Source of the DNA: a virus
Taxonomy: Duplodnaviria > Caudoviricetes
Reading direction: 5' to 3' (one strand)
Length of the DNA stretch: 64,000 nucleotides
Virus record (IMG/VR): IMGVR_UViG_642918881_000001
Span: 5,905 to 69,904 of that record
The notes beneath the pieces are model-generated. The model worked only from the letters and a program-made list of their open reading frames with translations, was not told where the DNA came from and made no database searches. Shown here piece by piece: positions 10,537-63,851 of the stretch; position 1 is the first letter of the stretch, and the number at the start of each line of letters is the position of its first letter. The translations under genes were made by a program, and so were the position numbers.

Positions 10537-10598
10537 GGCGGGGCGGTCCCGCCTTGCTGATGTGAACACACTAACCCGCCTTAGTCGGGTAAGTCAAG
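10537..10598 (-). promoter_or_regulatory. repeated promoter/operator/5' hairpin cassette, copy 1
   Basis: Minus strand TTGACT-N18-TAGTGT; spacer ACCCG-ACTAAGG-CGGGT; downstream GGCGGG-ACCGC-CCCGCC hairpin. Confidence 0.85.
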
Positions 10599-10637
10599 AT
10601 GACCGATGCGCGCACTGCCAACCGATACCCTGGCGTC

Positions 10638-11381
10638 GTGGCTTTCACGTGGCCGGTCGACCGGTCTGACTTCCCGGCGCTGCCCGAGGAAACCGACCCT
10701 GGCTACGACCAGGCGGTGCTGGAGCAGCGTGCAGCAGCTGACCTGGCCGTGGCGGTGATGTGGGCGCTTACCGGCCGTCAGTGGGGCCTGTACGAGAACA
10801 CCGTTCGCCCGTGCCGTACCGAGTTCCCCAGCTGGCCGGGCTTCGCGCCGGGCGGCGTCACCAGCTACGTGCTCAGCTGGGAAGGCGACGGATGGGTGAG
10901 CTGGCCGTGCGGCTGCGTGGGCGCGTGCAAGGTGTCCGGCCCGCGCGCCGTCCACTTGCCCGGCCCGGTCTACGCCGTGACCGAAGTCAAGATCGCCGGA
11001 ACGGTGGTGCCACCGGCCGGGTACGTCACGGAGAACAACGTGCTCTATCGGGTCGGCGCGCCGTGGCCAGCGCAAGACCTCGGTCGGCCCCTTGGTGAGG
11101 CCCGCACCTGGGCGGTGACCTACCAGCGCGGCATCCCAGTGCCGGAGAGCTTCGCCGCGCTGACCGGGCTGCTGGCCAAGGAGTTCCTGGACGCGATCGA
11201 CAACGAGGGCCGGTGCCGCCTGCCCCGCACCGTGACCACCGCCAGCCGTCAGGGCGTGACGTACCGCGCCTACGATCCCCAGGTTATCTACGCCAACGGC
11301 AAGACCGGCTTGCCGGAGATTGACCTGGTGCTCGCTGCCGTCAACCCGAACGCGCTGATGTCCGCGCCTACGGTGGTCTGA
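10638..11381 (+). CDS. head-to-tail adaptor
   Basis: Motifs WALTGRQWG...VRPC, CRLPRTVTTASRQGVT and TGLPEIDL; GTG 10638 is preceded by TACCCT at 6 nt. Confidence 0.8.
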   Translation: MAFTWPVDRSDFPALPEETDPGYDQAVLEQRAAADLAVAVMWALTGRQWGLYENTVRPCRTEFPSWPGFAPGGVTSYVLSWEGDGWVSWPCGCVGACKVSGPRAVHLPGPVYAVTEVKIAGTVVPPAGYVTENNVLYRVGAPWPAQDLGRPLGEARTWAVTYQRGIPVPESFAALTGLLAKEFLDAIDNEGRCRLPRTVTTASRQGVTYRAYDPQVIYANGKTGLPEIDLVLAAVNPNALMSAPTVV

Positions 11382-11911
11382 TGACGCAGCCCTGCCGCAC
11401 CGACCCCGCCATGGAGGTCATCGGTGCCGTGACGACCACGCTGGCCGAGTTCTTCCGTAAGGACCAGCTGTGCCCGCCCATGGTGGGCGGCACCGCCAAC
11501 ATCCGATTCTTCGCTGGCGACGGCGCGCCGCTGGCCGCGTGGGACAGCCACGTCAGTCAGGGCTGCGACGAACCTTTCGTCTGGGTGCGCGCCCAGCGCC
11601 GCTACCGCAGCCGGGCGTTCCCGAACCCCACGGTGGAGGTCGGGAACTGCAAGCTGCTCAAGGTGATGCCGGTGGAGGTCGGCGTGGCCTGGTGCGCGGT
11701 GGTCGAACAAGAGCCCCGGTGGTCTGACTACGCCAAGGAGGCGGCGGTCAGCATGGACACCGCCTGGCGTATGGAGGAGGCGCTGTGTGCCGCCGCTGCC
11801 CAGCTGCTGCGCGACGACAGCGAGCGCCTGGTGGGAACTGACATCATCAACCCGTACGGTCCAGAGGGCGGCGTCATCGCTTGGATCGGCACCCTGTACG
11901 CCAGCTACTGA
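11381..11911 (+). CDS. head-tail connector / tail terminator-like structural protein
   Basis: Overlaps the adaptor stop; C-terminal PYGPEGGVIAW motif; synteny. Confidence 0.6.
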   Translation: MTQPCRTDPAMEVIGAVTTTLAEFFRKDQLCPPMVGGTANIRFFAGDGAPLAAWDSHVSQGCDEPFVWVRAQRRYRSRAFPNPTVEVGNCKLLKVMPVEVGVAWCAVVEQEPRWSDYAKEAAVSMDTAWRMEEALCAAAAQLLRDDSERLVGTDIINPYGPEGGVIAWIGTLYASY

Positions 11912-11922
11912 GGAGGACAACC

Positions 11923-12279
11923 ATGGCCAGGATCACCATTGAGGGCAGCCGCCTTTCGCCGAGCACGTTCCTGGCGGCGGGTGAGCGCGCCACCGTACAG
12001 CGCACCGAGCGCGTGGAACGCCTGCTTGCGCGGGGCTTCGTGGTGGAAGTGCCGGAGCAGCGCACCGTCACCGTCACCGAGGTGGTCACCGAGGTGGAGG
12101 CCGACAAGCAAGCCGCCCAGTCGCGTGAGGAGCTGGGCGTGCCACCGCGCAACGCCAGCCGCGACGACTGGGCGGAGTTCCTGGCCCAGCACCCCGGCGG
12201 CTTCGTCACCGAGGACAAGGACCGCGCCGCGCTCATCGCCGAATGGGATGCCTACGCGCCGCCGGTCGACGTGGAGTAG
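11923..12279 (+). CDS. hypothetical protein with C-terminal HeH-like motif
   Basis: GAGGAGG RBS; PPRNASRDDWAEFL...DRAALIAEWD. Confidence 0.7.
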   Translation: MARITIEGSRLSPSTFLAAGERATVQRTERVERLLARGFVVEVPEQRTVTVTEVVTEVEADKQAAQSREELGVPPRNASRDDWAEFLAQHPGGFVTEDKDRAALIAEWDAYAPPVDVE

Positions 12280-12282
12280 CCC

Positions 12283-12696
12283 GTGCCGGTAACCGCGCGC
12301 ATCCACATCAACGAGCCCGAGCTGGAGCGCCAGTCCGGCGCGATCTTCCGTGGTAAGCACCGCAGCCTGACCCGGCGCATTGCCACGCAGGCCCGCGCCG
12401 ACGTACCCGTGCGCACCGGCAACCTGGGCCGGACCGTCGGTGAGCTGCCGCAGCGCTACCGGCCGTTCCATGTGGACGGCGGTGTGGAGGCCACGGCCGA
12501 CTATGCGGCGGCGGTGCATGAGGGCAGCCGCCCGCACCGCATCGTCGCCCGGCACGCCCAGGCGCTGCACTTCTTCTGGCACGGGCGCGAGATATTCCGC
12601 AAGAGCGTCTGGCACCCCGGCGTCCGGTCAAGGCCCTTCCTGCGCAACGCTGCGCAGCGTATCGCCGCCGCTGACCCCGACATCCACATGACGTGA
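12283..12696 (+). CDS. HK97 gp10-like neck/tail-completion protein
   Basis: Motifs VPVRTGNL, YAAAVHEGS and HPGVRSRPFLRNA. Confidence 0.75.
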   Translation: MPVTARIHINEPELERQSGAIFRGKHRSLTRRIATQARADVPVRTGNLGRTVGELPQRYRPFHVDGGVEATADYAAAVHEGSRPHRIVARHAQALHFFWHGREIFRKSVWHPGVRSRPFLRNAAQRIAAADPDIHMT

Positions 12697-12751
12697 CTTT
12701 CCCGACCTTGGTGGTAGTCTCGCGGCCGAACCCCAAGCCTCGGGAGGGCCA

Positions 12752-49182: not shown

Positions 49183-49212
49183 GGGTCTCCTTCGTGGTTG
49201 TGGTGTGCGGGA

Positions 49213-50024: not shown

Positions 50025-50054
50025 AGCGTACCGTATGGCACCCCATTTTGTCAA
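50025..50054 (-). promoter_or_regulatory. SigA-type leftward promoter
   Basis: Minus strand TTGACA-N18-TACGCT. Confidence 0.7.
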
Positions 50055-51052: not shown

Positions 51053-51118
51053 CCCGGCTGAGCTGCGGTTTTACGTTGGTGCTGGCGCGCCAGCAAACTA
51101 TGGGTTATACATATAACC

Positions 51119-51665: not shown

Positions 51666-51770
51666 CGCCCTGGCAGCTGGCGGCGCTCGTTGAGTTGCTG
51701 CGGCACCCCGAACGGCGCGTGATCGTGACATGTGTGCCGCCCCAGCACCCGCAGACCGGAAGGCAGCGCC

Positions 51771-52205: not shown

Positions 52206-52398
52206 GCATCAGCGCGGCACCAAGCCCGTCATCCGCGCACGGGTCGACCGGGCCACCGCCTGCTATTACCCCGACAGCCAGCGCGTGGTTCTGGTGGCCG
52301 ACAAGGCAGACTTCGGCGCGGCGCTGCGTGCCCTCACCGAACTGCGCGACCACTATGGTGCCGAGCTGGAACCCCGTGAGGGACAATCGCCAGCATGA
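52183..52398 (+). CDS. hypothetical protein
   Basis: GGAGG RBS; ATGA overlap with the next gene. Confidence 0.55.
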   Translation: MIDTVTIEHQRGTKPVIRARVDRATACYYPDSQRVVLVADKADFGAALRALTELRDHYGAELEPREGQSPA

Positions 52399-52979: not shown

Positions 52980-53538
52980 GCCCGACGCTGACCATGGACC
53001 TGCCCAGCACCGCTGCACCCTGATCGAACGGCACGAGATTGCCGCGCCGGTAGACGACGACCAGCCCGACATCACCGACTACGCGCAGGCGGTGGCGGCG
53101 ATGTTCGACCAGGCGCGGGCCTGGCACGCCGCCCACGGGCTGGAGCCGGTTGACCTGGCCCGCTTCGCCCGCACGGCCAGCACACGCGGCAGCGCGGCGG
53201 TGGGCGTCAGCTGGACCGTCACGGTGGGGCGCGGGGAGCTGAGCGCCGACCAGCGCATCCCCGGCGTCATGGACAGCTGGAAGTGGTCGGCACGGTTCCA
53301 CTACTGGCGCAAGGTGTTCAACCGCATGGACGGACGCCAGGGGCGGCTGTTGGCGCTGCGTGAGGACGGCCGGGCCAGTGTGACGCCGTTGTTCCGTGAC
53401 CATCGGCCCGTCGCCGCCGAGACGACCGTCAACGGGGCCACCCTGGGCGTGCTGACCGGCAGCGTGGACGGCTGCACGTGCCATCTGCCCGGCCCGTTCA
53501 AGGACATCTGTCCGATCCACTTCGCCGCCGGCACGTAG
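52954..53538 (+). CDS. hypothetical protein
   Basis: GC3-biased ORF; start uncertain. Confidence 0.6.
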   Translation: MTTGATSPEPDADHGPAQHRCTLIERHEIAAPVDDDQPDITDYAQAVAAMFDQARAWHAAHGLEPVDLARFARTASTRGSAAVGVSWTVTVGRGELSADQRIPGVMDSWKWSARFHYWRKVFNRMDGRQGRLLALREDGRASVTPLFRDHRPVAAETTVNGATLGVLTGSVDGCTCHLPGPFKDICPIHFAAGT

Positions 53539-53560
53539 CCCCAGCGGTACGATCGCGCGC

Positions 53561-53800
53561 ATGGGCCTCGCTGACACCCGCCATCACTCCGTGCAGCACC
53601 TCGTTGACCTGCTGGAGCCGAACCCCAACCTTCCCGACCCGCTGTTCAAGGTCTCCGACGTTGCCGCCTGTATGCGCGACAAGATGCTTGAGCTGCTGGG
53701 CGACGGGCCGGAGCTGGCCGCTGGCCTGCGCAAGCTGCTGGAGGCCAAGGACTGCTTCGTGCGCCAGGCGCTGCTCGACCGCGTGGACGGTGACGAATGA
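53561..53800 (+). CDS. hypothetical protein
   Basis: GPELAAGLRKLLEAKDCFVRQA, a motif seen in small phage proteins; TACGAT 7 nt upstream of ATG. Confidence 0.75.
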   Translation: MGLADTRHHSVQHLVDLLEPNPNLPDPLFKVSDVAACMRDKMLELLGDGPELAAGLRKLLEAKDCFVRQALLDRVDGDE

Positions 53801-53958
53801 CCGGTACGCCCGAGCAGCTGGCCCAGGTGCGGCGCAACGTCAACCAGCTGGCCAGCACGTTGTGGTGGAAGGCCCAGGGCAGCCCCACGCCCGAGGAGGC
53901 CCTGGCCACACGTGACGTGCTGCTGGCCCAGGCACGGATGAACGGCATCGACGTATGA
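53797..53958 (+). CDS. hypothetical 53-aa protein
   Basis: ATGA overlaps at both ends (MTGTPEQLAQVRR...). Confidence 0.6.
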   Translation: MTGTPEQLAQVRRNVNQLASTLWWKAQGSPTPEEALATRDVLLAQARMNGIDV

Positions 53959-54530
53959 CCGCCGAGCCCGTAGACGACCCCTGCGAACTCGACACCGACG
54001 AGCCCGACGCCAAGGGCTGGCTGCCGGACTACCAGCTGGTACCGGCCATCCTGGCGGGCAGCACGACGACCATGGCCGACCTCTGCCCCGCCGACCGGGC
54101 CTGGGCGGTGGCCGGGCTGATGCGCGCCGGGCACACCGCCGAACGCATCCGCGACCGTATGGGCTGCTCGCTGCGCACCGTGCGCATGGTCAGCGCCTGG
54201 GCGGCGACGACCGCCTGCATGTTGCTCCAGGAGGAGTCCGAGCACTTTGCCGACGAGCACCGGATGCAGGCCAGCGAGATTGCCCGGCTGGCCCGCGAGC
54301 TGGCCACCGCCGAGGCCACCGCCGAGCGCTACCGGCAGCAGATCGCCAACATGCTGGACAGCTACCTGACCGGTGAGGCCGGGCCGACGTTCCCCAAGTG
54401 CGGCCATCCGAAGACGAAGTACAACACCTATACCGCCCCCAAGACCGGCAAGACCAGTTGCCGCATGTGCCACGCCGACGCTCAGGCGCGCTACGAGCAG
54501 CGCTGCCGGGACGCCGCCGTGCCGGGCTAG
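53955..54530 (+). CDS. HTH plus zinc-finger DNA-binding protein
   Basis: GHTAERIRDRMGCSLRTVR HTH; CGHPKTKYNTY...SCRMC. Confidence 0.7.
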   Translation: MTAEPVDDPCELDTDEPDAKGWLPDYQLVPAILAGSTTTMADLCPADRAWAVAGLMRAGHTAERIRDRMGCSLRTVRMVSAWAATTACMLLQEESEHFADEHRMQASEIARLARELATAEATAERYRQQIANMLDSYLTGEAGPTFPKCGHPKTKYNTYTAPKTGKTSCRMCHADAQARYEQRCRDAAVPG

Positions 54531-54546
54531 GCGTAGGGTCGGCCCC

Positions 54547-54837
54547 ATGGCCAAGGCACGCAAGGGCAGCCGCCGGGCCGGAACATTGCGCGGTGGCCGC
54601 AGCAAGATCGCACGCAGCCGGGGGCGCGGTACCGTCGCGCTGCACACCAAGGCCGGAGGCATCGCCACGTTCGCCAAGGGCGGCGGTGGCGGCTACCGGG
54701 GCTTCAAGAGCAAGAAGCAGTGGCGCTGGGCCTGGGCCACGCATCAGCCCTGGGCGCGCAAGAAGTCGCACGAAACCGCCGGAGGCCCGAAGGTGCGCTA
54801 TCGCCGCCTCCCGGCCAGCAAGCACTCCGGTCACTGA
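54547..54837 (+). CDS. highly basic small protein
   Basis: MAKARKGSRR...FKSKKQWRWAWATHQPWARK; TAGGGT 7 nt upstream. Confidence 0.7.
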   Translation: MAKARKGSRRAGTLRGGRSKIARSRGRGTVALHTKAGGIATFAKGGGGGYRGFKSKKQWRWAWATHQPWARKKSHETAGGPKVRYRRLPASKHSGH

Positions 54838-54856
54838 TAACCCCGGTCATCAGGAT

Positions 54857-55219
54857 TCAGCCGAACGCGCCGAGCGCGCTGGCCAGGAACAGCAGCGCCA
54901 GCGCCGCAGTGAGGGCCACATAGCCCGCCTGCCGCCAGCTGGCCCACGGCCAGGCCACCACCTCGGCCTCGGGCTGTTCGTGCCAGGGCGACACCCACAG
55001 CGCCGCCACGCCGACACCCTGGCCCAGGCATCGGCGGCACCGGTAGGCGTCGACCAGCCAGCGCATGTCGTGCCGGTAGTAGCAGCCGCCGCAGCCCTGG
55101 CACCAGTCCGCGCGGCCATCCAGCAGCGACTGGACACCCGGCTCCACGATGGGCTTGCCTGCCCGGCCCGGCGGGATAGGCGTGTGCTTCACGGCACCGC
55201 GCGGCCGCCTGCCTCCCAT
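54857..55219 (-). CDS. zinc-finger membrane protein
   Basis: CQGC...CRRC and a C-terminal TM segment. Confidence 0.55.
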   Translation of the reverse strand: MGGRRPRGAVKHTPIPPGRAGKPIVEPGVQSLLDGRADWCQGCGGCYYRHDMRWLVDAYRCRRCLGQGVGVAALWVSPWHEQPEAEVVAWPWASWRQAGYVALTAALALLFLASALGAFG

Positions 55220-55413
55220 CAGGCACCGCCCCGGTGTGCGTCCTGGCCGTGCAACTGCCGTCCGCTCAGTGCGACGTGCTTTCGAGCCATGCCCGTGCGG
55301 TCGATGATCGGCCGGTGCTGTGTGTTGTATCGCCGTCCGCAGTCCGTACACACATCGCCGCAGTGGGGTCGGTTGCTTCCGGGACACCACTGGCTGATCA
55401 TCTTGGGCATCAC
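55219..55413 (-). CDS. small zinc-binding protein
   Basis: CPGS...CTDCGR...RKH. Confidence 0.6.
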   Translation of the reverse strand: MMPKMISQWCPGSNRPHCGDVCTDCGRRYNTQHRPIIDRTGMARKHVALSGRQLHGQDAHRGGA

Positions 55414-55796
55414 CACACCTCCAGGGGTACGTCGCAGTCATCGGCGTGCTGCGCCAGGTAGTGCGCGCCGCAGGTGGCGCAGTGGTCGGTGTCGTCGTAG
55501 GGATCGGTGGCGGCGCGCAGCGCGGCGGTCATCCGTGCGCCCTGGCGGCAGCTGCACCCTGGGCAGTGCGGGCCACGGATGTTGCTGCGCCGGTACGTGC
55601 CGCCCTCGCTGCCCGGCACCAGCCGGTCGGCAATCACCTCGTCCTCGGTCACCAGCCGCCCGCACTCCCAGCAGGGCACTTTCGTGCCGTCGCCGCCGAA
55701 CCCGGCCTCGGGGCTCACCAGCCAGCGCCGCCGGGCGCGCCGGTCGTAGCTGCTGCCGCGTTCGTTGCGGTTACTCCGCCCGCAGATGCTGCTCAC
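55410..55796 (-). CDS. HNH endonuclease
   Basis: CWECG...ADRLVPGSEGGTYRRSNIRGPHCPGC (variant HNH). Confidence 0.75.
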   Translation of the reverse strand: MSSICGRSNRNERGSSYDRRARRRWLVSPEAGFGGDGTKVPCWECGRLVTEDEVIADRLVPGSEGGTYRRSNIRGPHCPGCSCRQGARMTAALRAATDPYDDTDHCATCGAHYLAQHADDCDVPLEVW

Positions 55797-55939
55797 TTGG
55801 TCACCACACTGGGCGGATCGAACACCAGCCGCCAGCGGTCGCCCGTCCACAGCAGCACCCACCAGTGCCGCAGGCGGTGCCGGTCGCCGTCGAACAGGCG
55901 CGCCACGTCGGCGCGCGTGGGTACACCGCTGCCGGTCAC
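55793..55939 (-). CDS. hypothetical 48-aa protein
   Basis: Hand translation; GTGA overlaps. Confidence 0.45.
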   Translation of the reverse strand: MTGSGVPTRADVARLFDGDRHRLRHWWVLLWTGDRWRLVFDPPSVVTK

Positions 55940-56030
55940 CGGCCGACCACCTGGCCGCACCGGGCGCACACCTGGGCGGGCCTGCCGCCGCGCAGCACAA
56001 CCACGGCGGTGATGTGCGGGCAGGGTGGCC

Positions 56031-56189
56031 TCATGCGCGCTGGGCCTCCTCGTCGCGCTGCCAGTCGTCCAGGATCGCGGTCAGCCGGTTAACCGGCACC
56101 ACCAGCGCACTGCCGTACTCGGCGCACAGCTCGCGGATGCGGGCCAGGGCCAGCCGGTCGGGCGTCAGGGCGAACGGGTCACTGATCAC
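56031..56189 (-). CDS. hypothetical 52-aa protein
   Basis: GTGA overlap; GAGGAG RBS. Confidence 0.55.
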   Translation of the reverse strand: MISDPFALTPDRLALARIRELCAEYGSALVVPVNRLTAILDDWQRDEEAQRA

Positions 56190-56398
56190 AGGTCGAACTC
56201 CTCCTCGTACATCGGCAAGAACTCCGACGCGGGCCGGGGCTGCCCGGCGGCAACGCTGGCGTCGAACATGGCCAGCAGATGCTCCAGGTAGCGCACGTGC
56301 GGGCTGGGCTCCAGCCCGTTGTCCGGCGCGTCGACAATGCGCGCGATGAACTTGCGCCGCTGACGGTCCACGTCCATCCCGTGGCTGACGGTTTTCAC
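56186..56398 (-). CDS. hypothetical protein
   Basis: AGGAG RBS; GTGA overlap. Confidence 0.6.
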   Translation of the reverse strand: MKTVSHGMDVDRQRRKFIARIVDAPDNGLEPSPHVRYLEHLLAMFDASVAAGQPRPASEFLPMYEEEFDL

Positions 56399-56643
56399 GG
56401 GCACTCCTGGCCGGGGCGGTGGACCAGGCGGCATTCCGCGCAAATAACCTCCCGCGCGTCCACCTCGAACTCCCGCATGTCGATGGCGTCCTCACTGCCC
56501 GGCCCGCGCACGGTGGGCCAGCTCAGCTCCAGGTCGGGCACCGGCCCGCAGTCGATGCCCGGCAGGCAGCTCGCGCATCCGTCCACCGCACTGTGAGCGC
56601 GGTGGCCGCACTTGCGGCAGGGCACGCGGGTATCGAACGTCAT
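56395..56643 (-). CDS. Cys-rich hypothetical protein
   Basis: CRKCGH, CASC and CAECRLVH motifs. Confidence 0.6.
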   Translation of the reverse strand: MTFDTRVPCRKCGHRAHSAVDGCASCLPGIDCGPVPDLELSWPTVRGPGSEDAIDMREFEVDAREVICAECRLVHRPGQECP

Positions 56644-56798
56644 GGCCTGTCGTCCCATCCGTTGCGCAGCTTGCTGGTCAGGCACGGCTGGCCCAGTGTG
56701 TTGTCGTGCTCGGCAAAGCAGCGCTGACCCTCGGCGTTACGCACCACGTCGACCGTCTTGGTGCATACCGGGCACCAGTACGTTCCCTCGGCGCTCAT
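56640..56798 (-). CDS. small zinc-binding protein
   Basis: MSAEGTYWCPVC...H...C; ATGA overlaps. Confidence 0.55.
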   Translation of the reverse strand: MSAEGTYWCPVCTKTVDVVRNAEGQRCFAEHDNTLGQPCLTSKLRNGWDDRP

Positions 56799-57277
56799 CG
56801 TGTCCTCACTACGGCGGTCACGGTGCTGCCCGGCCGGAAATGCTCACGCCAACCGTGGTACTCCAGCAGCGCGCCCAGGTCGTCCAGCACCACGAAGCGG
56901 TCAGCCGCCAGGCCGACGCGCACGTGGCCCATCAGAGGCCGGTCCAACGTGGTCTCGGCCAGGGTCACGTGGTCGGTGTGGCAGGGACGCCACGGTGCCC
57001 ACCAGGGCCGGTCACCCCACGCCGCCACCAGCGCCACCATGGTCGTGCCGGGGCTCACCTCGGTGGCCGGGTCCACGATGGGCGGCGCGGTAGCCAGCAC
57101 CTCGGCGCGCTGTCCGGCGCGGCGGCGCAGCAACAGCACCCGCACGATGAACGCCAGCAGCACGCCGACGACGGCATCGCGCCAGCTGAACGGCCAGCCG
57201 ATCCACTGGTCGATGGACCAGCTGATCGCCAGGCACACGGGCATCACGATGAACCACCAGCCCAGCCAGTCCCTCAT
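56795..57277 (-). CDS. membrane protein
   Basis: Two N-terminal TM segments. Confidence 0.65.
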   Translation of the reverse strand: MRDWLGWWFIVMPVCLAISWSIDQWIGWPFSWRDAVVGVLLAFIVRVLLLRRRAGQRAEVLATAPPIVDPATEVSPGTTMVALVAAWGDRPWWAPWRPCHTDHVTLAETTLDRPLMGHVRVGLAADRFVVLDDLGALLEYHGWREHFRPGSTVTAVVRTR

Positions 57278-57423
57278 GGACGCCATGGTTCGGCCCCCGT
57301 TCCGGTGCTCACGTTGTGCGTGAAGCACCAGCCATACCGCCAGCGGCAGGTCGGCCCGCAGGGCAGCAGGCCCACGGCGCGCATCACCTCGGCCAGCTCG
57401 GCGTTCGTCATGTTGGCGTCCAT
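57274..57423 (-). CDS. hypothetical 49-aa protein
   Basis: GGAGGG RBS; hand translation MDANMTNAELAEVM... Confidence 0.5.
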   Translation of the reverse strand: MDANMTNAELAEVMRAVGLLPCGPTCRWRYGWCFTHNVSTGTGAEPWRP

Positions 57424-57424
57424 G

Positions 57425-57739
57425 TCAGCCCTCCAGCTTCTTGCGCAGCGCGGCCAGGTCGATGTCGTCCAGGGGCGGCACCGCCAGCCCCAAGATCAGC
57501 GGCAGTTCCACGTCATGCGTGTTGCACCAGACCGTCACCGGCGGCGCGCCATAGGTGAAGGCCAGCTCGCAGCCCAGCTGGGCGTGAACGCCGACCTCGG
57601 GGTTCATGTTGGGCAGCCGACCATTGGCCGGAGCCTCGGGCTCGCGGGCCAGATGCTGCGCGATGTTCTCCAGCGCGGCAACAGCGCGCTTGGCCAGCGT
57701 CATGGCATCACGGGTCGGGCCGGGCAGCAGGTTAACCAT
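57425..57739 (-). CDS. hypothetical protein
   Basis: AAAGGA RBS; GC3 bias. Confidence 0.65.
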   Translation of the reverse strand: MVNLLPGPTRDAMTLAKRAVAALENIAQHLAREPEAPANGRLPNMNPEVGVHAQLGCELAFTYGAPPVTVWCNTHDVELPLILGLAVPPLDDIDLAALRKKLEG

Positions 57740-58016
57740 GGTCGGGTCGTCCTTTCGAGGTGAGGGGTAGGCCAGCCCGCCGGAGCGTGGCTATGGCGTT
57801 CTTGAGCGCGCGGGTATCGCTGGGCGTGCCGGGCAAGGTGGTCGTCAGCACGCCTTGGACGTACACCTTGAAGTGACCTCGGCACGGTTTGACCTCACCG
57901 CCCACGGCGATCACCGCGTGTACCAGCTCGCGGACGGCGGTGTTGGTGCCGCCCACGCGCTTGCGGCCACAGCCGGGCACCGGCCGGGTCGGATCGGTGG
58001 ATATTGGTTGGCCCAC
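57732..58016 (-). CDS. HicA-like toxin/RNase
   Basis: VRELVHAV...GGEVKPCRGHFKVY...TLPGTPSDTRALKNAIATLRRAG; AAAGGAGG RBS. Confidence 0.7.
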   Translation of the reverse strand: MGQPISTDPTRPVPGCGRKRVGGTNTAVRELVHAVIAVGGEVKPCRGHFKVYVQGVLTTTLPGTPSDTRALKNAIATLRRAGLPLTSKGRPDHG

Positions 58017-58069
58017 AGCGAGCCTCCTTTCGGTGGTGGGCCGGGCCTTCCGGCCCACCGGGTGGATGC

Positions 58070-58342
58070 TTACTCGTTGATTTCGCCGACCCAGATCACC
58101 GCACGCATGGCGTCGGTGGCCTTGGCCCCGTCGAGCCCGGTGCCCACGATCACAATGCGCTCGGTGCGTCCGTTGTGGCGGTAGGTGCCGCGCAGCACGC
58201 CGTCGAACTGGAGGTCGTCCAGGGTGATGGTGCGGTGCAGAGCCTCGGCCACGCGGAGCGCGGCGTCCATGTCGGCGGCGCGGTCGTCGGTGGTGATGTC
58301 GGTTTGCGTGCCACGGCTGGTGATGATCGAGAAGGTGGACAT
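58070..58342 (-). CDS. hypothetical protein
   Basis: AAGGGAG RBS; first gene after cassette copy 4. Confidence 0.75.
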   Translation of the reverse strand: MSTFSIITSRGTQTDITTDDRAADMDAALRVAEALHRTITLDDLQFDGVLRGTYRHNGRTERIVIVGTGLDGAKATDAMRAVIWVGEINE

Positions 58343-58364
58343 TGCTGGCTCCCTTACCTGCGGT

Positions 58365-58426
58365 GGCGGGGCGGTCCCGCCTGGCTGATGTGAACACAGT
58401 AACCCGACTAAGGCGGGTAAGTCAAG
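58365..58426 (-). promoter_or_regulatory. repeated promoter/operator cassette, copy 4
   Basis: TTGACT-N18-TACTGT; spacer core flipped relative to copy 1. Confidence 0.85.
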
Positions 58427-58574
58427 AACTGTTTTTGCAGGTCGTAGGTTTGTCCACGCTGTGCCGCCGCACCATGCCGTTCGCCTTGACGGCGAAGCGG
58501 TGCCCGCACGCCCGGCAGTAGTCGTGTCCGCGAAAGGTGCGGGCCGGGGGCTTGTCGCTCCCCGAGCACCGCAC
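58422..58574 (-). CDS. small zinc-binding protein (similar to 55219-55413)
   Basis: Hand translation VRCSGSDKPP...YCRACGHRFAVKANGMVRRH. Confidence 0.5.
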   Translation of the reverse strand: MRCSGSDKPPARTFRGHDYCRACGHRFAVKANGMVRRHSVDKPTTCKNSS

Positions 58575-58581
58575 CCTTGCG

Positions 58582-58902
58582 TCACTGATGGTCGCCCTCG
58601 AACTTCATGCACCGCCCGCCCGACGCCAGCACGTACATGCACACGTCGCCGCCGGGCATGGGCTCGAACTCGTGGTGTGCGTCCGTGTCCTGGTCGGGAT
58701 TGCCGGGGCTGTGCGAGCCGCTGGCGGGCGAACCGGCCTCGCCCCGACCACTGGCCCAGGCGGCAGGCAGGAACCCGCCACGGGCCAGCCAGCCGTGAAG
58801 GCCCAACGTCAGCTCGCACAGCCGATGGATACCGTCGTGGTACTCGGACTGATCAGTGCGGGCGATGTCCAGCATTTCGGCCAGTGCGGCGTCGGGGTCC
58901 AT
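58582..58902 (-). CDS. hypothetical protein
   Basis: MDPDAALAEML...LHGWLARGGFLPAAW; GGAGG RBS. Confidence 0.7.
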   Translation of the reverse strand: MDPDAALAEMLDIARTDQSEYHDGIHRLCELTLGLHGWLARGGFLPAAWASGRGEAGSPASGSHSPGNPDQDTDAHHEFEPMPGGDVCMYVLASGGRCMKFEGDHQ

Positions 58903-59111
58903 CAGCTGACCTCCACCCACTGCGTGACCACGGCCAGCGCCGCCTCGTAGCTGTCGGCGTCGGTGACCTCGTTGACGAACTCGGTCACCTCGGCCACGTG
59001 GCCAGCGGTGCGCAGCGCCTTGCTGACCCGGCCGATGATGAAGAACACGTTGCCGTCCTGGCCGGTCATCTGCACCAGTACGTCGGGGTACTTCGGCTCC
59101 TGCCCGGCCAT
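58902..59111 (-). CDS. hypothetical protein
   Basis: VQMTGQDGNVFFIIGRVSKALR...SYEAAL, a recognisable small phage protein motif. Confidence 0.75.
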   Translation of the reverse strand: MAGQEPKYPDVLVQMTGQDGNVFFIIGRVSKALRTAGHVAEVTEFVNEVTDADSYEAALAVVTQWVEVS

Positions 59112-59701
59112 CAGTAACGGTCCTCGCGGCCAAACGGGCTGCCCATGAAGGCAATGCCGTAGCCCCGGCCACCGGACCCGCCAGCGCCAGGCGGCACCTC
59201 GGCCCGCACCAGCGGGTCCACCACGCCACCGGGCGCGTAGGTGCCCAGCACCCGGCCGTAGCTGCCCATGCGCTCAGCCACCGGGGTCTCCTCGTCGGGG
59301 CTGGGGCCGATGTTCTCCGTGTCGGTGACCACGCGCAGGCTCGGCCAGTTGGCCTCACCGACGAACTGGAGCAGGCCCGGCCAGTTCAGCCGGTCGGTGG
59401 TCTGGCCGGTGACCGCCCAGCGCACGCTCCGGCCCTGCCGCCAGCCCACGGCGGCATAGTGGTACTCCCGCCCGGCCTGGTACTTGGTGAAGATGACGAC
59501 CGCGCTTTCGCCCTCATGCACGGGCGGCATCTTGGGCCGGGCCTCCTCGCGGCGGCGCAGTTCCTCCTGGGCCACCAGCCGGTCGATCCGCGTGGCTTCC
59601 TCCAGCATGGCGGCAGCCTGCTCGCGCAGGTCGCGGGCGCGCACCGGATTGACCGGCGCGGCTGCCGTCTCGGCCTTTACGTCCTCGGTGTCGTTGGACA
59701 T
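59111..59701 (-). CDS. hypothetical protein
   Basis: AAGGAGG RBS with CACAACCA motif. Confidence 0.75.
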   Translation of the reverse strand: MSNDTEDVKAETAAAPVNPVRARDLREQAAAMLEEATRIDRLVAQEELRRREEARPKMPPVHEGESAVVIFTKYQAGREYHYAAVGWRQGRSVRWAVTGQTTDRLNWPGLLQFVGEANWPSLRVVTDTENIGPSPDEETPVAERMGSYGRVLGTYAPGGVVDPLVRAEVPPGAGGSGGRGYGIAFMGSPFGREDRY

Positions 59702-59811
59702 GTGGTGTTCCTCCTTGGTTGTGGTGTGCGGCCAGCGGATGCCGCCGCGCGTGCAGGTGATGGGCGGCAGCAGCGCTGGCCAGTAGCCGAACTGTGCCGC
59801 TGGCCAGCGCA

Positions 59812-60042
59812 CTACGGCAGCTCCACCTCGTCGTCGGGGCCGGAGCCGTAGCTGGCCGGGTGCTTGGCGGTGGCGCAGCGGCTGTTCTTGCCCGCCATGC
59901 CGATGCCGTGCTTGGCGTTCACGAACGCGGGGTTCATGCACGCTTGGTCGTAGACCGGGTACTGGCCGGTCTCGGCGGTGGCGGTCGCGGCACCGAACAG
60001 GGCCATGCCTGCGGTGAGCGCGGCGGCGATCAGGTACTTCAT
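59812..60042 (-). CDS. small secreted protein
   Basis: Signal peptide MKYLIAAALTAGMALFGAATATA; two Cys. Confidence 0.7.
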   Translation of the reverse strand: MKYLIAAALTAGMALFGAATATAETGQYPVYDQACMNPAFVNAKHGIGMAGKNSRCATAKHPASYGSGPDDEVELP

Positions 60043-60080
60043 GGTGTCCTCCTTGGTTGTGGATGTAGCGGTTTGCTACG

Positions 60081-60150
60081 TGGCCCCGGCTGGACTCGAA
60101 CCAGCAACAACAGTGATCAACTGCGCGCTCCCCAGGTGCGCCGCAGGGCC
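60081..60150 (-). ncRNA. tRNA-like RNA with shortened anticodon arm (loop UUGAUCA)
   Basis: GGCCCTG CG GCGC-ACCTGGGGA-GCGC G CAG-TTGATCA-CTG TTGTT GCTGG-TTCGAGT-CCAGC CGGGGCC A: 7-bp acceptor, D arm and canonical T arm. Confidence 0.7.
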
Positions 60151-60197
60151 TTGGTGGTGCGGGCCGGTGGTCAGTTCACCGACCCGCACCGGTCTTA

Positions 60198-61244
60198 CTA
60201 CACCGGCAGCAAGGCGGTGAACGCCTTGGCCTTCATGTTGCCGATGTCGCTGCTCATCAGGGTGCGCTGGGCGCGGCGGATGGCTGCCTCCTCGCCCTCG
60301 GCACCGGTCACCGGGCGGTGGTGGTCCAGGTACTCGGTGACCGCGTTGTACACACCGAACGCCGTGCCACGGAACGGAGCCACGGTGTCGGCGGTGCGGT
60401 ACAGGTCGACCACCTCGGCGGCGCGCAGCTTGCGGCTCTCGGCCTGCTTCTCGGTGGTGGCACCGGGCACGTTCCAGATGTCCTCCAGCACCTCCAGCAC
60501 CTGCACCGGGTTCATCTCCCGCTTGATCAGGAGTTCGCACTGCTCCACGAACGTGTCGCGGTAGGCGAAGGTCAGCCCCAGCAGCTGGCGCACCTCGGCC
60601 AGGCGCTTGTCGGGCTCGCCGGTGTGGCGCAGGCTCACGCTCGACCGGGCGGCGTGCTCGGCCATGCGCTGCGTGTTGGCGCACACGATGCGCACCGGGC
60701 TGATGATGGCCCGCAGCGCGTCCTCGCCGGTGTGGTTGTTCAGGATGCTGATGTACAGATCGGTGACGTCCAGCTCCCCGGTAACCGGCGACCGGAACTC
60801 CATGTGGGCGGGCATCTTCATGGTGACGAAGGTGTCCCGGCCACCGCGCAGCGCGCCGATGGTCTCGATGTGCGCGCCGCCCTCGTCCACGATCTGGCTG
60901 AGCAGCGCGGTGGTCTGCTCGTTCTGGAACGGGGTCCAGCGGTTGCCGACCACGCCCAGGGCCTCGGTGCCGCCGTTGACGGGGTTCGTGCGGACCACCA
61001 CGTGGCGGTCGGGCACGGTGAGGCTCAGGGTGCCCTCGCCGGTCTGGTCGGGCACCTCGGCCGTCAACGGCACCTTGCGCACGTCCCAGCCGCGCATGTG
61101 GGCGGCGTCCAGGGCCTCGTCGGTGGTCATCAGGTGGCCGACCGGCGTGCCGAGCTTGTGCCAGGCGTCGACCAGCCCGTTGGCGTCGGTGCGGCTGTCC
61201 GCAAAGCTGGTGATGCCGTCGGTGGTGTCGAGTTCGTGTGCCAT
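60198..61244 (-). CDS. DUF932/DUF945-family protein
   Basis: AWHKLG, LGVVGNRWTPFQN, NNHTG, PVRIVCANT and GTAFGVYNAVTEYLDH motifs. Confidence 0.85.
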   Translation of the reverse strand: MAHELDTTDGITSFADSRTDANGLVDAWHKLGTPVGHLMTTDEALDAAHMRGWDVRKVPLTAEVPDQTGEGTLSLTVPDRHVVVRTNPVNGGTEALGVVGNRWTPFQNEQTTALLSQIVDEGGAHIETIGALRGGRDTFVTMKMPAHMEFRSPVTGELDVTDLYISILNNHTGEDALRAIISPVRIVCANTQRMAEHAARSSVSLRHTGEPDKRLAEVRQLLGLTFAYRDTFVEQCELLIKREMNPVQVLEVLEDIWNVPGATTEKQAESRKLRAAEVVDLYRTADTVAPFRGTAFGVYNAVTEYLDHHRPVTGAEGEEAAIRRAQRTLMSSDIGNMKAKAFTALLPV

Positions 61245-61289
61245 GTCAATTCTCCTTGGTTGTGTAGGTGGTTGGTTGTCGGAGGGCGG

Positions 61290-61412
61290 TTATCGAACCA
61301 GCTCGCTGTCGGTCACCTCGTAGCCCTCGGGCAGCAGCCGGGCCAGGCGCTCGGCCACGTCCAGCGGATGGACGTTTTCGGGAACCGAAATGGTGACGGT
61401 GACGAGCTTCAT
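61290..61412 (-). CDS. hypothetical 40-aa protein
   Basis: AAGGAGG RBS; first ORF after cassette copy 5 (MKLVTVTISVPENVHP...). Confidence 0.65.
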   Translation of the reverse strand: MKLVTVTISVPENVHPLDVAERLARLLPEGYEVTDSELVR

Positions 61413-61436
61413 GGGGTACCTCCTTGGTTGTGGCTA

Positions 61437-61496
61437 GCGGGGCGGTCCCGCCTGCTGATGTGAACACAGTAACCCGCCTTAGTCGGGTAAGTCAAG
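61437..61496 (-). promoter_or_regulatory. repeated promoter/operator cassette, copy 5
   Basis: TTGACT-N18-TACTGT plus hairpin. Confidence 0.85.
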
Positions 61497-61518
61497 ACGT
61501 TCAAGCAGGCAATTTGTG

Positions 61519-61674
61519 CTAGAACGATCCCATCACGTAGCCGATGGGAATGGCCAGCGCGCACGTCACCGTCAGCACGGCGCAGGTCAGCTCGGTCAGG
61601 GTGTCGGGCTTGGCGTAGTGCAGCCCCACGCAGGCCAGCAGGCCCACGGCCAGGATGATCAACTGGAGAATCAC
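61519..61674 (-). CDS. small membrane protein (2 TM)
   Basis: GGGAGG RBS; hydrophobic. Confidence 0.6.
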   Translation of the reverse strand: MILQLIILAVGLLACVGLHYAKPDTLTELTCAVLTVTCALAIPIGYVMGSF

Positions 61675-62036
61675 CAGGGGCCTCCCTCGGGCAGGTTGAA
61701 CCAGACGCGGCGCTGCTCCGGCGTCGGCGTGCCCGTCGGATCGGGCTCGGGCCACCGCGCCTCAATGCCGATGTTCACCCGCTGTTCGGGCGCTGGCGGG
61801 GCCAACAGCAGCTCCCACGGCACCGGGTCCGGCCCATGCTCGACCATGGCGGCGAACAGCCCGCCGTCGGTCTCGCGGTACACCTTCTCGGCGCGCTCCC
61901 GCCGAATGTCGTGGGCGATCTGCGCCGCCCAGCGGATGTGCGCGGCGGCGTCGGCCGCACGGTTGCGCCGCCGGGCCTTGCGGCCGAACCAGCCGCAGGC
62001 CGGGCACCAGAGCGCGTGTTCCACGTGAAACGTCAT
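61671..62036 (-). CDS. hypothetical protein
   Basis: CPACGW motif; ATGA overlap. Confidence 0.6.
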   Translation of the reverse strand: MTFHVEHALWCPACGWFGRKARRRNRAADAAAHIRWAAQIAHDIRRERAEKVYRETDGGLFAAMVEHGPDPVPWELLLAPPAPEQRVNIGIEARWPEPDPTGTPTPEQRRVWFNLPEGGPW

Positions 62037-62389
62037 GGCATGACCACCGCGAACTCGTTGCGGAACAGGCACAGCCGCTTTCCTCGGGCGAAGCGGATGC
62101 AGTACAGCGGCAGCCCCGTCGCGCTGGTCATGCGTGACGTGATCTTGCCTGTCCTGTTATCGGCCACCACGTGGTCGTTGACGACGGGCGTCACCGTGTA
62201 GGCATCGCTGATGTCGATGAGCCGGGCGTGGGCGGCGCGCTCGGCGCTGCGCTGGGCGTCGGCCTTGGTGCCGCACACGTCGGTGAAGTCCGGCCCGCTG
62301 GCTGTCCAGACGCCCAGGCGGGCGTCCACCTGCTGCACGGCGTAGGGTCCGGCCTGGTACAGCCCAGGCCGGGTGCGCGTCCACTTCAT
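62033..62389 (-). CDS. hypothetical protein
   Basis: MKWTRTRPGLYQAG; GGGAGG RBS. Confidence 0.65.
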   Translation of the reverse strand: MKWTRTRPGLYQAGPYAVQQVDARLGVWTASGPDFTDVCGTKADAQRSAERAAHARLIDISDAYTVTPVVNDHVVADNRTGKITSRMTSATGLPLYCIRFARGKRLCLFRNEFAVVMP

Positions 62390-62610
62390 GCGCGGGCCTC
62401 CCGCCGGTCGCGCCAGTAGGCGGCGTTCACGGTGAGTTCCCAGTCCACGATGGCGCTGGCCTGCGCCCACTGCTCGGCCTCGGGGTCCAGGGTGTTCTCC
62501 AGCGTGCTGGCGATGCCCTGGCCCACCGGGCAGGCGGGCTCATGGTCGGTGACGTAACCGGCGCAGCTGTCGCAGCCTGCGGGCTCGGTGACGTTGGCGG
62601 GGTCGTACAT
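62386..62610 (-). CDS. hypothetical protein
   Basis: GAGGAGG RBS; CDSC...HEPACP. Confidence 0.65.
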   Translation of the reverse strand: MYDPANVTEPAGCDSCAGYVTDHEPACPVGQGIASTLENTLDPEAEQWAQASAIVDWELTVNAAYWRDRREARA

Positions 62611-62615
62611 GGCGG

Positions 62616-62948
62616 TTATGCCTCCTCGGCGTTGATGCGGGCGATGGCTGCGGCGGCGTCCTTGGCGCTGGGCACCGACCGCACGTAGATGATGGAGCTG
62701 CCGGGTGCCAGGTCAACCTGGTAACCCACGGCGATCATGTCGTCGGCAAGGGCCTTGGCCTTGCGGACGTTGGCGCTGTCCAGGTCGCTGACGCTGACCC
62801 ACACGTTGGCCGGAATGGTGCGTCCGTTGCCACGGTGGACGCTGAACCCGGCGCGGTGGATCGGCTGGCAGATGATGCCGAAGTCCCGGTGCAGCGCCCG
62901 GCTGACGACCGGGGCAGTAGGTAGACCGTTGGCGGGCTTGCTGGCCAT
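62616..62948 (-). CDS. hypothetical protein
   Basis: AAGGAG RBS; first gene after cassette copy 6. Confidence 0.75.
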   Translation of the reverse strand: MASKPANGLPTAPVVSRALHRDFGIICQPIHRAGFSVHRGNGRTIPANVWVSVSDLDSANVRKAKALADDMIAVGYQVDLAPGSSIIYVRSVPSAKDAAAAIARINAEEA

Positions 62949-62970
62949 GGTTGGCTCCTTGGGTCGCGGC

Positions 62971-63032
62971 GGCGGGGCTGTCCCGCCTGGCTGATGTGAC
63001 CACAGTAACCCGACTAAGGCGGGTAAGTCAAG
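62971..63032 (-). promoter_or_regulatory. repeated promoter/operator cassette, copy 6
   Basis: TTGACT-N18-TACTGT; flipped spacer core; hairpin. Confidence 0.85.
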
Positions 63033-63083
63033 ACCTTGGCAGGGCCAGGACCAGGCAATTTGCCCGGCCCCGGCCCTGGAGGC

Positions 63084-63764
63084 TTACGCCTCGGCCTTGG
63101 CAGCCTTGCGGGCTGCGCGGCGCTCGCGGCGCTTGGCCAACCGCTCGGCCTTGGCGTCGGCCGTCTCGTTGGCGCGCTTGGCGGCGCGGCGGGCGGCACG
63201 GCGGGCCTTGCGGGCAGCCACCTTGTCGGCGTCGGCAACCTCGGCCTCCACCTGCTCGATGGTGGCGTCGGCCTCGGGCTTGACCTCGGTGGTGTCCAGC
63301 TCGGCCAGGGCCTCCTCCAGGTCACCCTCTGGGTCGGCAGCCTCGACCGGCTGGGGCTCGGGGTCGGCGGCAACCTCGGGCAGCTCGGCGGCGGGCTTGC
63401 TGGCCTTCTTGGCGGTCTTGGTGCCCTTGGCCTTGGGCGCGTTCTTGGCCTCGATCAGCGCGTTGATGGCCTCCTCCTGCCAGCCATCGGCGGCGGCGAA
63501 GTCACCGACGCTGACCACGCCTTGGACGCTGGTGGGCACGGCGGGCACCACGGTGGCCTGGTAGCCCTGCTCGGCGAAGTACGCGCCGACCTTGCCGCTG
63601 CCCGCCTTCGCGGCGGCGGCTGCGGACTTGTGCCAGCTGTACGGACCCCAGTTGGTGCCGTCCTCGTTGCCGGTCATCAGGACGTGGGTGTAGGCCATGG
63701 ACCCGGTGGTGCGGGTGAAGGTGGTGCCGTTGGGGGCGGTGGCGGTGAAGGTGATGGTGGCCAT
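63084..63764 (-). CDS. hypothetical protein with acidic linker and Ala/Arg/Lys-rich C-terminus
   Basis: AAGGAG RBS; first gene after cassette copy 7. Confidence 0.75.
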   Translation of the reverse strand: MATITFTATAPNGTTFTRTTGSMAYTHVLMTGNEDGTNWGPYSWHKSAAAAAKAGSGKVGAYFAEQGYQATVVPAVPTSVQGVVSVGDFAAADGWQEEAINALIEAKNAPKAKGTKTAKKASKPAAELPEVAADPEPQPVEAADPEGDLEEALAELDTTEVKPEADATIEQVEAEVADADKVAARKARRAARRAAKRANETADAKAERLAKRRERRAARKAAKAEA

Positions 63765-63790
63765 TTTGGTGCTCCTTGCGGTTGTGCGTA

Positions 63791-63851
63791 GCGGGGCGGT
63801 CCCGCCGTGCTGATGTATGAACACTAACCCGCCTTAGTCGGGTAAGTCAAG
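63791..63851 (-). promoter_or_regulatory. repeated promoter/operator cassette, copy 7
   Basis: TTGACT-N18-TAGTGT plus hairpin. Confidence 0.85.

Follow-up and report, generated by a model that had tools for sequence, protein, structure and literature searches.

The stretch of DNA analysed here, called the window below, covers bases 5905-69904 (64 kb) of the 69,904-bp virus record IMGVR_UViG_642918881_000001 and belongs to a Cluster B (B4-like, Coopervirus) mycobacteriophage. On balance, eight minus-strand sites in the window are considered to be SigA-type promoters sharing one control module, in which a palindrome located in the spacer between the -35 and -10 hexamers would be the operator of a dimeric phage repressor, the most likely one being an XRE-type helix-turn-helix (HTH) protein with an Aca2-like fold. 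The cassette is a real, conserved and apparently unpublished regulatory design of a known general kind, and the puzzle of a palindrome core occurring in both orientations resolves to an ordinary explanation.

Among named phages, those closest to the window belong to the genus Coopervirus (Mycobacterium phages; Cluster B, B4-like) and are about 82-90% identical to it; gene labels were taken from the annotation of one Coopervirus relative mapped onto the window. In the comparisons below, G000-G006 are seven B4-like full genomes and G007-G010 are genomes of other Cluster B subclusters. According to the accessible text of PMC9262239, Cluster B is among the largest mycobacteriophage groups, with more than 350 genomes.

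Promoter cassettes and the spacer palindrome

The window was searched with the plus-strand pattern ANNNTAACCCG-N7-CGGGTAAGTCAA, allowing up to three mismatches. Seven matches were obtained, all with 0 mismatches and all representing minus-strand promoters (Table 1); the mean in 100 shuffles was 0.00. Read on the minus strand, the consensus is TTGACT-T-ACCCG-N7-CGGGT-TANNNT. The plus-strand cores are CCTTAGT in copies 1, 2, 5 and 7, ACTAAGG in copies 4 and 6, and ACTAATG in copy 3. The same seven copies and cores had been listed in the initial annotation, and the list proved exact, its coordinates being 3 nt off as they were counted from a different base. Across the full 69,904 bp of the record, no exact copy beyond the seven was found. 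A palindrome-only search together with a looser expression revealed one more cassette on the minus strand (49942-49980), the eighth, which is degenerate and had been missed in that list. The palindrome alone, with up to three mismatches, gave nine matches against 0.48 expected, and the sites with 0-1 mismatch were located exclusively in promoters.

Mycobacterial SigA promoters have the consensus -35 TTGACN, a 17-18-nt spacer and -10 TANNNT. At seven of the eight sites, TTGACT is followed after 18 nt by TAGTGT, TACTGT, TAGTAT or TAGTTT, with a same-strand gene start 45-130 nt downstream, supporting the earlier assignment of these sites as SigA-type promoter cassettes, here found to head leftward gene blocks. 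Site 8 has, of the SigA elements, the -10 only. In six copies (all except copy 3), the -10 is followed by ATCAGC, the hairpin GCGGGAC(C/A)GCCCCGC, a Shine-Dalgarno (SD) sequence and an ATG 45-50 nt past the presumed start, in agreement with what had been described for them. The cassettes escaped a consensus promoter and terminator scan of 48500-64000, since a -10 resembling that of E. coli is required there, and no terminator was seen at them.

The 18-nt spacer contains a 17-bp quasi-palindrome, in which the unlike half-sites ACCCGAC and ACCCGCC flank a central base pair. Written as ACCCG-x-CT-n-AG-y-CGGGT, the site has (x,n,y) = (A,A,G) in one orientation and (C,T,T) in the other; only these three of the 17 positions change with orientation, since the inner CT/AG forms a palindrome of its own.

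Conservation across Cluster B

In IMG/VR, the exact B4-type pattern has 54 occurrences, each full genome contributing 5-8, and the promoter-strand cores at these sites were CCTTAGT (25), ACTAAGG (14), CAATAGT (6) and nine singletons. In 45 B4-type cassettes with the hairpin, taken from the 7 genomes, each position from the -35 to the -10 was at least 90% identical, except for the three flipping positions (about 60%), and the palindrome arms were invariant in all 45, whereas the 30 nt upstream were 30-70% identical. The exact cassette pattern gave 0 matches in genome contigs, i.e. no prophage copy was found there, and 6 matches in metagenome contigs, 2 of them apparently unrelated.

In the other subclusters (G007-G010), where orthologous proteins are about 40-60% identical by tblastn comparison, the hexamers are TTGACA with TAACTT or TAGACT with TATCTT, or the -35 is lost, TATATT also occurs as a -10, and the spacer is 17 nt in G009 and G010 as against 18 nt in the B4-like genomes. 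The CCCG/CGGG arms, above all the GTCGGG half beside the -10, persist across these subclusters. Locus D, which holds site 8, retains the palindrome and the -10 despite having no -35 and no hairpin. Since the arms are kept while hexamers and core diverge, and since site 8 carries the palindrome without the rest, a protein-binding site is favoured over mere copy identity, and the sequence comparison favours the view that the palindrome behaves like a selected protein-binding site. As would be expected of an operator, the site is dyad-symmetric, overlaps the core promoter and is conserved beyond neutral expectation. The earlier proposal that the spacer is an operator for a dimeric regulator is strengthened by the retention of the arms, with binding itself a prediction.

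All 7 B4-like genomes have the locus D site, in a degenerate form in G002 and G004; that of G003 only failed the regular expression. In G008, six cassettes keep the palindrome, the -10 and the hairpin, have a GTGTG-rich stretch in place of a TTGAC -35, and show the same orientation at all six sites. In the distant subcluster genome G010, cassettes were found on both genome strands, including the plus strand at 2403 and 3029 near the left end.

Orientation of the core

Core orientation was surveyed at nine orthologous loci (A-I) in the 7 full genomes and at four right-end loci in 16 further named phages. The 16 right ends were chosen from 25 of 72 records, with GenBank/RefSeq duplicates, two likely repeats of included genomes and two others excluded. 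Flipped orthologues were observed at five loci (A in G003, B, E, G and I), representing at least five events among the 7 full genomes and 16 right ends, and at every flipped locus x, centre and y changed jointly. At locus B, G002-G004 show one orientation and G000, G001, G005 and G006 the other; between G003/G004 and G005/G006, the upstream sequence is identical at 30 of 30 bases, the 40 downstream bases are 93-95% identical, and the cores are reverse complements. At locus I, the flanks of G005 and G006 are 90% and 95% identical and the cores are flipped. At locus G, ACTAAGG was found in this phage only (1 of 23) and CCTTAGT in the other 22, the locus-specific -10 TACTGT being retained. As orthologous loci with near-identical unique flanks differ by an exact reverse complement, the flips are, on these alignments, real multi-nucleotide inversions.

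Both orientations coexist in every B4-like genome, and in G010 the A-type half lies left in six sites and right in four according to a reading of the site listing. Loci F and H hold CCTTAGT in all 23 genomes, and at locus I the counts are 4 for ACTAAGG, 1 for CCTTAGT, 10 for CCTAAGT and 8 for CTAAAGT. Partial states are rare, with CCTAAGT at locus I in 10 genomes, all of one related group, and ACTTAGG once in IMG/VR. Frequent flipping had also been considered and was dropped, since the 16 extra right ends gave no flips at loci F, G and H. Judged from this distribution, the flips are occasional multi-base inversions that are then stably inherited, presumably neutral and not a switch. The initial annotation had proposed micro-inversion between the ACCCG/CGGGT arms and had suggested a survey of orthologous loci as a check. 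The survey confirmed real inversions, with flips at five loci, yet an enzyme-driven or ongoing inversion is unsupported given the 5-bp arms and the fixed state of loci F and H.

Template-switch inversions between short inverted repeats are known from quasi-palindrome mutagenesis in E. coli and from hairpin-loop inversions in plastid DNA. The flips are similar in that the change is the reverse complement of a multi-nucleotide segment between short inverted arms and recurs independently at homologous loci, and they differ in that the segment lies inside a presumably protein-bound operator. In-situ template switching is somewhat favoured as the source of the flips. At locus G, the flipped core stands 7 nt away from its own -10, and no other ACTAAGG cassette of this genome has TACTGT, so inversion in place is favoured there.

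It is possible, although doubtful, that the two orientations were instead spread by short-patch gene conversion between paralogous cassettes, maybe after one ancient inversion. Both forms occur in every B4-like genome and in the distant G010, so donors would always be at hand, and multi-base discriminator alleles have moved between loci. However, such a tract would have no more than 12 bp on the left, and 7 bp on the right, in which to end, the flipped core of locus G retained a -10 that none of the ACTAAGG cassettes of this genome could have supplied, and the flipped and unflipped forms at locus B carry private discriminators found in no other cassette. That the core is a programmed invertible element, acting as a phase-variation-like switch of promoter behaviour, is hardly credible: the two states are exact reverse complements between inverted arms, but the arms are only 5 bp, the inverted 7 bp hold neither hexamer, no recombinase or invertase was found among the 83 annotated features read in a close relative between about 14 and 69.6 kb of its 69.6 kb, and the constancy of loci F, H (23 of 23) and G (22 of 23) indicates stably inherited states. 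The flips would represent a small and clean natural case in which inversion between very short inverted repeats is tolerated within a functional site.

Candidate regulators

Three regulators had been put forward in the initial annotation, namely an XRE protein, an AlpA-like protein and a ribbon-helix-helix (RHH) protein, and the first has held up best. The XRE protein is present in all 10 other Cluster B genomes, and its gene and the gene of the AlpA-like protein (68 amino acids, aa) stand behind cassette 2 in 17 of 17 related loci. Its recognition helix (R56, R57, Y59, Q60 and E63) does not vary among 12 sequences with an overall identity of 42-93%. The Pfam match to HTH_31 had E 5.7e-4 and 20.6 bits, below the cut-off of 27. 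In the AlphaFold2 (AF2) model of the protein (predicted local distance difference test score, pLDDT, 79.9), residues 21-141 were aligned by VIA-align with five Aca2 entries at Z 10.5-11.2 and a root-mean-square deviation (rmsd) of 2.3-2.7 Å over 101-106 residues. Z was 10.4 for 2ox6 and 9.7 for 1s4k, and HTH-only matches reached Z 9.3 at most over about 57 residues. Full-length Foldseek matches were 2ox6 (E 6.7e-5) and Aca2 (E 1.3e-2 to 6.1e-2). The predicted fold therefore combines an XRE HTH with an Aca2-type C-terminal dimerisation domain; at the sequence level, neither Pfam nor a profile search of PDB placed the protein in the Aca2/DUF1870 family. As the best of the three candidates, the XRE/Aca2-fold protein would bind the operator, with about an even chance of being the right one.

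The 68-aa protein, also found in 10 of 10 genomes, was modelled as a MerR/excisionase/BldC-like winged helix, so that the AlpA-like label is retained in a weak form, with a best E of just 0.11 and 0 matches to PDB sequences. The RHH candidate (51119-51385, plus strand) has a strong Pfam match to RHH_10 (E 5.9e-31) and lost ground, as no tblastn match (E up to 1e-3) was obtained in G007 although this genome has palindromes.

A 96-aa protein at 54547-54834 (plus strand; phrog_5320) has a very arginine-rich N-terminus and occurs in 10 of 10 other Cluster B genomes with 61-97% identity. This protein could be a further candidate nucleic-acid binder.

Leader hairpin

The leader hairpin GGCGGG-N5-CCCGCC has a 6-bp stem, a 5-nt loop and a folding energy of -11.5 kcal/mol. 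It begins about 9 nt into the presumed transcript and ends about 10-13 nt ahead of the SD, with no U run after it. The pattern GGCGGGA-N4-CCCGCC is strand-specific, with 3-13 copies per genome in Cluster B against 0 for the control pattern. Two further copies, one without the palindrome and one without a promoter, are listed in Table 1. By its distribution, the hairpin is a part of the cassette separate from the palindrome and equally conserved. Its stem GGCGGG/CCCGCC has the same sequence as the ACCCGCC operator half-site, a match that could be due to chance given the GC-rich hexamer.

The hairpin may act as an mRNA stabiliser, or as a second (RNA) target of the operator protein as with Aca2. 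Binding of the hairpin by the same protein as the operator is offered as a tentative suggestion.

Regulatory model and alternatives

In the proposed model, the eight promoters would be used by host RNA polymerase early in infection, and a dimeric repressor sitting between the -35 and the -10 would block the enzyme, silencing all eight leftward blocks jointly (the replication genes, the right-arm small genes and its own operon). The XRE protein would be autoregulated via cassette 2. A symmetric dimer would read the site equally in either orientation; since it would be indifferent to the orientation of the centre, rare template-switch inversions between the 5-bp arms would be neutral and persist. 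The survival of both states within the presumed operator in turn argues for a symmetric reader. That the spacer palindrome is bound by some phage-encoded dimeric operator protein is regarded as likely.

At MerR promoters, the spacer is over-long (19-20 nt), and activation is brought about by distortion of the DNA. The sites described here resemble MerR-type operators in having a dyad centred between the -35 and the -10. In contrast to them, the spacers are 18 nt (B4-like) or 17 nt (G009 and G010) and not over-long, so repression by occlusion is more likely than MerR-type activation.

Several points weigh against an Aca2-fold repressor acting at all of these sites. No published binding, footprint, transcription-start or expression results were found for any Cluster B phage, and a search of sequencing runs gave no RNA run with the stretch and a best DNA share of 0.16. 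In all 8 window sites and all B4-type sites seen, an A-type half is paired with a C-type half; a simple homodimer would have no need of this pairing, which could point to two different proteins. The discriminator alleles gttcac and tcatac move among loci, so gene conversion between cassettes happens and could move cores too. A promoter with a strong -35 and an 18-nt spacer would function even if no regulator were involved. The likeness of the XRE protein to Aca2 is at the level of fold, with 16-17% identity, and a profile of the 12 XRE orthologues searched against PDB sequences matched only HTH-domain chains (the repressor of phage 434 and others) and no Aca2. Of the candidates, the 68-aa protein shows the highest conservation (58-99% identity, with 28 columns invariant), and 10 of 10 genomes also encode several other DNA-binding-like proteins, so that the choice of the regulator is provisional.

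The palindrome might accordingly be the operator of another protein, i.e. the 68-aa winged-helix protein, the RHH_10 protein, a host regulator, or two different proteins that each take one of the unlike half-sites, and this is judged unlikely. Besides its conservation, the 68-aa protein has a gene translationally coupled to the XRE gene, but its fold matches are weak and no dimerisation domain is evident. Small MerR-like proteins usually bind as monomers or head-to-tail arrays. The Pfam match of the RHH_10 protein is strong, and an RHH Aca regulator is known (PMC13551039, accessible text); against this stands its missing match in G007. The pairing of one ACCCGAC and one ACCCGCC half at every site would suit two proteins, yet the outer arms are perfectly symmetric, as for a homodimer. 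Identity of the palindrome with a DosR box or another host motif was dropped because the sequences differ.

Absence of any operator is improbable. The spacers would then be alike through recent recombining cassette copies, similar to PeSL cassettes, or the spacer itself would suit mycobacterial RNA polymerase. The whole module of about 85 bp is conserved, beyond the palindrome, the discriminator alleles move, and the gene behind the cassette differs at loci A, F and H, as in PeSL shuffling (PMC2839356, accessible text). On the other hand, the dyad is kept across subclusters with orthologous proteins 42-59% identical and with differing hexamers and cores, locus D retains it without the rest of the cassette, and the acceptance of both core orientations fits a symmetric reader better than direct contact with RNA polymerase.

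For the repressor model, the shared operator in eight promoters, the named candidate repressor and the conserved leader hairpin would form a compact scheme that is directly testable in M. smegmatis, a safe host. If it is true, HTH control of DNA and RNA would be extended from single anti-defence operons to a whole-genome early regulon, and a set of strong, co-repressible mycobacterial promoters would be at hand. A bolder version, in which one Aca2-fold dimer runs most leftward (presumed early) Cluster B genes by binding the spacer palindrome as DNA and the leader hairpin as RNA, is speculative and rather unlikely in this full form. Were it true, Aca2-type control would be a genome-wide timing device in a lytic actinophage and not a local anti-defence brake, and the tolerated operator flips would be a natural record of the two-fold symmetry of the reader.

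Comparison with known systems

A literature search including the literal motif found no description of the cassette, the 2010 sixty-genome paper and the large mycobacteriophage reviews lying outside this search; nothing was found on gene regulation in Cluster B, and no Cluster B transcriptome was found. A term search in the accessible text of PMC4472886, PMC6392294, PMC1475703 and PMC3029335 gave no mention of promoters or palindromes of B4 phages. For a B1 phage (10.1101/2023.05.30.542743), at least 10 top-scoring SigA-like promoters were reported among the right-end reverse-strand genes, and a palindrome or hairpin is not noted in the accessible part of that report. PMC11242194 was rejected as a relevant precedent, as it concerns a temperate phage and an unrelated protein.

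The closest parallel considered was the Aca2 unit (acrIF8-aca2) of phage ZF40. In the accessible text of the respective papers, Aca2 is described as a homodimeric HTH autorepressor that binds an inverted repeat in its own promoter (PMC6765145) and as a protein that also binds RNA hairpins in its own message's 5' untranslated region (UTR; PMC13551039). According to its model, the XRE candidate shares the two-domain fold (Z 10.5-11.2, about 105 residues), and the promoter of its own operon (cassette 2) has an inverted repeat and a conserved 5'-UTR GC hairpin between the presumed start and the ribosome binding site, both kept in relatives. The systems differ in the arms (CCCG-N7-CGGG here, TTCG-N6-CGAA for Aca2), in the number of hairpins (one here and two there) and in the range of the site, which occurs in eight promoters across a 70-kb actinophage, as against a single anti-defence operon or a few of them. 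An acr gene was not identified here, where no anti-defence library search was made.

PeSL cassettes of T4-type phages are promoter and stem-loop modules associated with gene shuffling (PMC2839356, accessible text). Similar to these, the cassettes are short repeated units of a strong sigma-70-type promoter and a stem-loop among small genes of unassigned function, with the gene behind the cassette varying in relatives. In contrast, the stem-loop of a PeSL serves as a terminator; the present hairpin, located downstream of its promoter, has no U tract, and the scan gave no terminator. In addition, no spacer operator palindrome is described for PeSLs, and recombination of the present cassettes is only suggested.

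Cluster O mycobacteriophages carry more than 30 copies of a 17-bp palindromic repeat, TGTTCGG-NNN-CCGAACA, many of them intergenic or within genes (PMC4351075, accessible text). Both are 17-bp dyads in many copies with an asymmetric centre (TTT/AAA in Cluster O) present both ways regardless of the direction of transcription, and the same text names no binder. Unlike the present palindrome, the Cluster O repeat is described there as lying outside promoter spacers, and its sequence is unrelated.

The stoperators of Cluster A are similar in that the site of one phage-encoded regulator is repeated genome-wide and overlaps early SigA-like promoters. They are bound by the monomeric immunity repressor of a temperate phage and lie mostly within transcription units. 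Unlike the palindrome described here, stoperators are asymmetric 13-bp sites and orientation-dependent.

Gene context and further features

The features of the window are collected in Table 1. Cassette 1 drives a lone leftward 84-aa gene (DUF7185) within the rightward tail-gene block. Cassette 2 heads a four-gene block (33409-31704) encoding a DUF6011 protein, the XRE/Aca2-fold protein, the small winged-helix protein and a small membrane-like protein. Cassette 3 drives the DNA helicase (start 41335), a 304-aa open reading frame (ORF), an exonuclease and one more gene. Cassette 8 stands at the head of the block that begins with the DUF7423 gene and continues through those for DNA polymerase I and primase; as a GTG follows six bases past its -10, its message is, from the sequence, probably leaderless. 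Cassettes 4-7 head four successive blocks of small right-arm genes, and the function of the genes behind the cassettes is mostly unassigned. At copy 5, the -35 follows the upstream stop codon after only 23 nt, which makes read-through from the preceding block likely. A search of the whole window against Rfam at the gathering threshold gave 0 families.

Table 1. Promoter cassettes, additional leader hairpins and candidate regulator genes of the window
Feature	Position	Strand	Exact motif (plus-strand coordinates)	Description
Cassette 1 (locus A)	10512-10597	-	10568-10597	-35 TTGACT, spacer T + ACCCGACTAAGGCGGGT, -10 TAGTGT, ATCAGC, hairpin core 10538-10552, SD, ATG 10514
Cassette 2 (locus B)	33407-33490	-	33461-33490	promoter-strand core ACTAAGG, -10 TAGTAT, hairpin core 33431-33445
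Cassette 3 (locus C)	41333-41462	-	41433-41462	core CATTAGT, -10 TAGTTT, different and stronger 5' hairpin (-34.3 kcal/mol), leader about 90 nt
Cassette 8 (locus D)	49942-49980	-		poor -35 GCGACA, then C, palindrome ACCCGACATTGGCGGGC (plus strand 49957-49973), -10 TAGTCT, GTG 6 nt later, no UTR hairpin
Cassette 4 (locus F)	58340-58425	-	58396-58425	promoter-strand core CCTTAGT, -10 TACTGT, hairpin core 58366-58380, ATG 58342 (90-aa gene)
Cassette 5 (locus G)	61410-61495	-	61466-61495	core ACTAAGG, -10 TACTGT, hairpin core 61437-61451, ATG 61412 (40-aa ORF, then DUF932 gene)
Cassette 6 (locus H)	62946-63031	-	63002-63031	core CCTTAGT, -10 TACTGT, hairpin core 62972-62986, ATG 62948 (110-aa gene)
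Cassette 7 (locus I)	63762-63850	-	63821-63850	core ACTAAGG, -10 TAGTGT, hairpin core 63791-63805, ATG 63764 (226-aa gene); rightmost promoter of the genome
Leader hairpin GCGGGACGGCCCCGC without palindrome	49567-49581	-		behind promoter TTGCGC-N18-TATAAC within 49560-49640
Leader hairpin without promoter	39601-39615	-		just past the helicase stop codon, ahead of the 304-aa ORF absent from the closest named relative
XRE-type HTH protein, 152 aa, predicted C-terminal alpha/beta domain (Aca2/YdiL-type fold)	32182-32637	-		HTH_31, phrog_955; behind cassette 2
68-aa winged-helix protein (MerR/excisionase/BldC-like, weak)	31979-32182	-		phrog_597; start overlaps the XRE gene stop

The first gene behind the same cassette differs among close relatives at loci A, F and H (window 10260-10514, 58070-58342 and 62616-62948), with three different N-termini at locus F among G000-G006. 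The likeness of copies 1 and 4 extends into the first codons (ATGTCCAC), and these observations suggest that genes are swapped at the cassettes. Immediately before the -35, AAATTGCCTG, a part of the 11-bp palindrome GGCAAATTGCC, was observed on the minus strand at copy 5 (61496-61525) and copy 6 (63032-63075), as in the orthologues of both, and GACCTGCAAAAAC was observed before the -35 at copies 4 and 7 (58426-58450 and 63851-63880).

The 304-aa ORF behind cassette 3 (38651-39565, minus strand), located between the helicase and exonuclease genes, has no Pfam match, is lacking in the closest named relative and has the promoter-less copy of the leader hairpin upstream. In the named relative NC_023741.1, the annotated start of the last gene (gene 95) abuts the -35 hexamer of the cassette corresponding to window 63762-63850; judged from the sequence, the ATG about 50 nt past the presumed transcription start, which has a good SD, is more likely the start of gene 95.

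An alternating purine-pyrimidine CG/TG run of about 45 bp, CGCGTGCGCGCACGCGCGTGTACGTGCGCGCG..., was observed at 49985-50031 (plus strand) in the intergenic region from which site 8 and the rightward genes diverge. The same place in G002, G004 and G006 holds a similar tract, and the run might be a Z-DNA-prone or origin-like feature.

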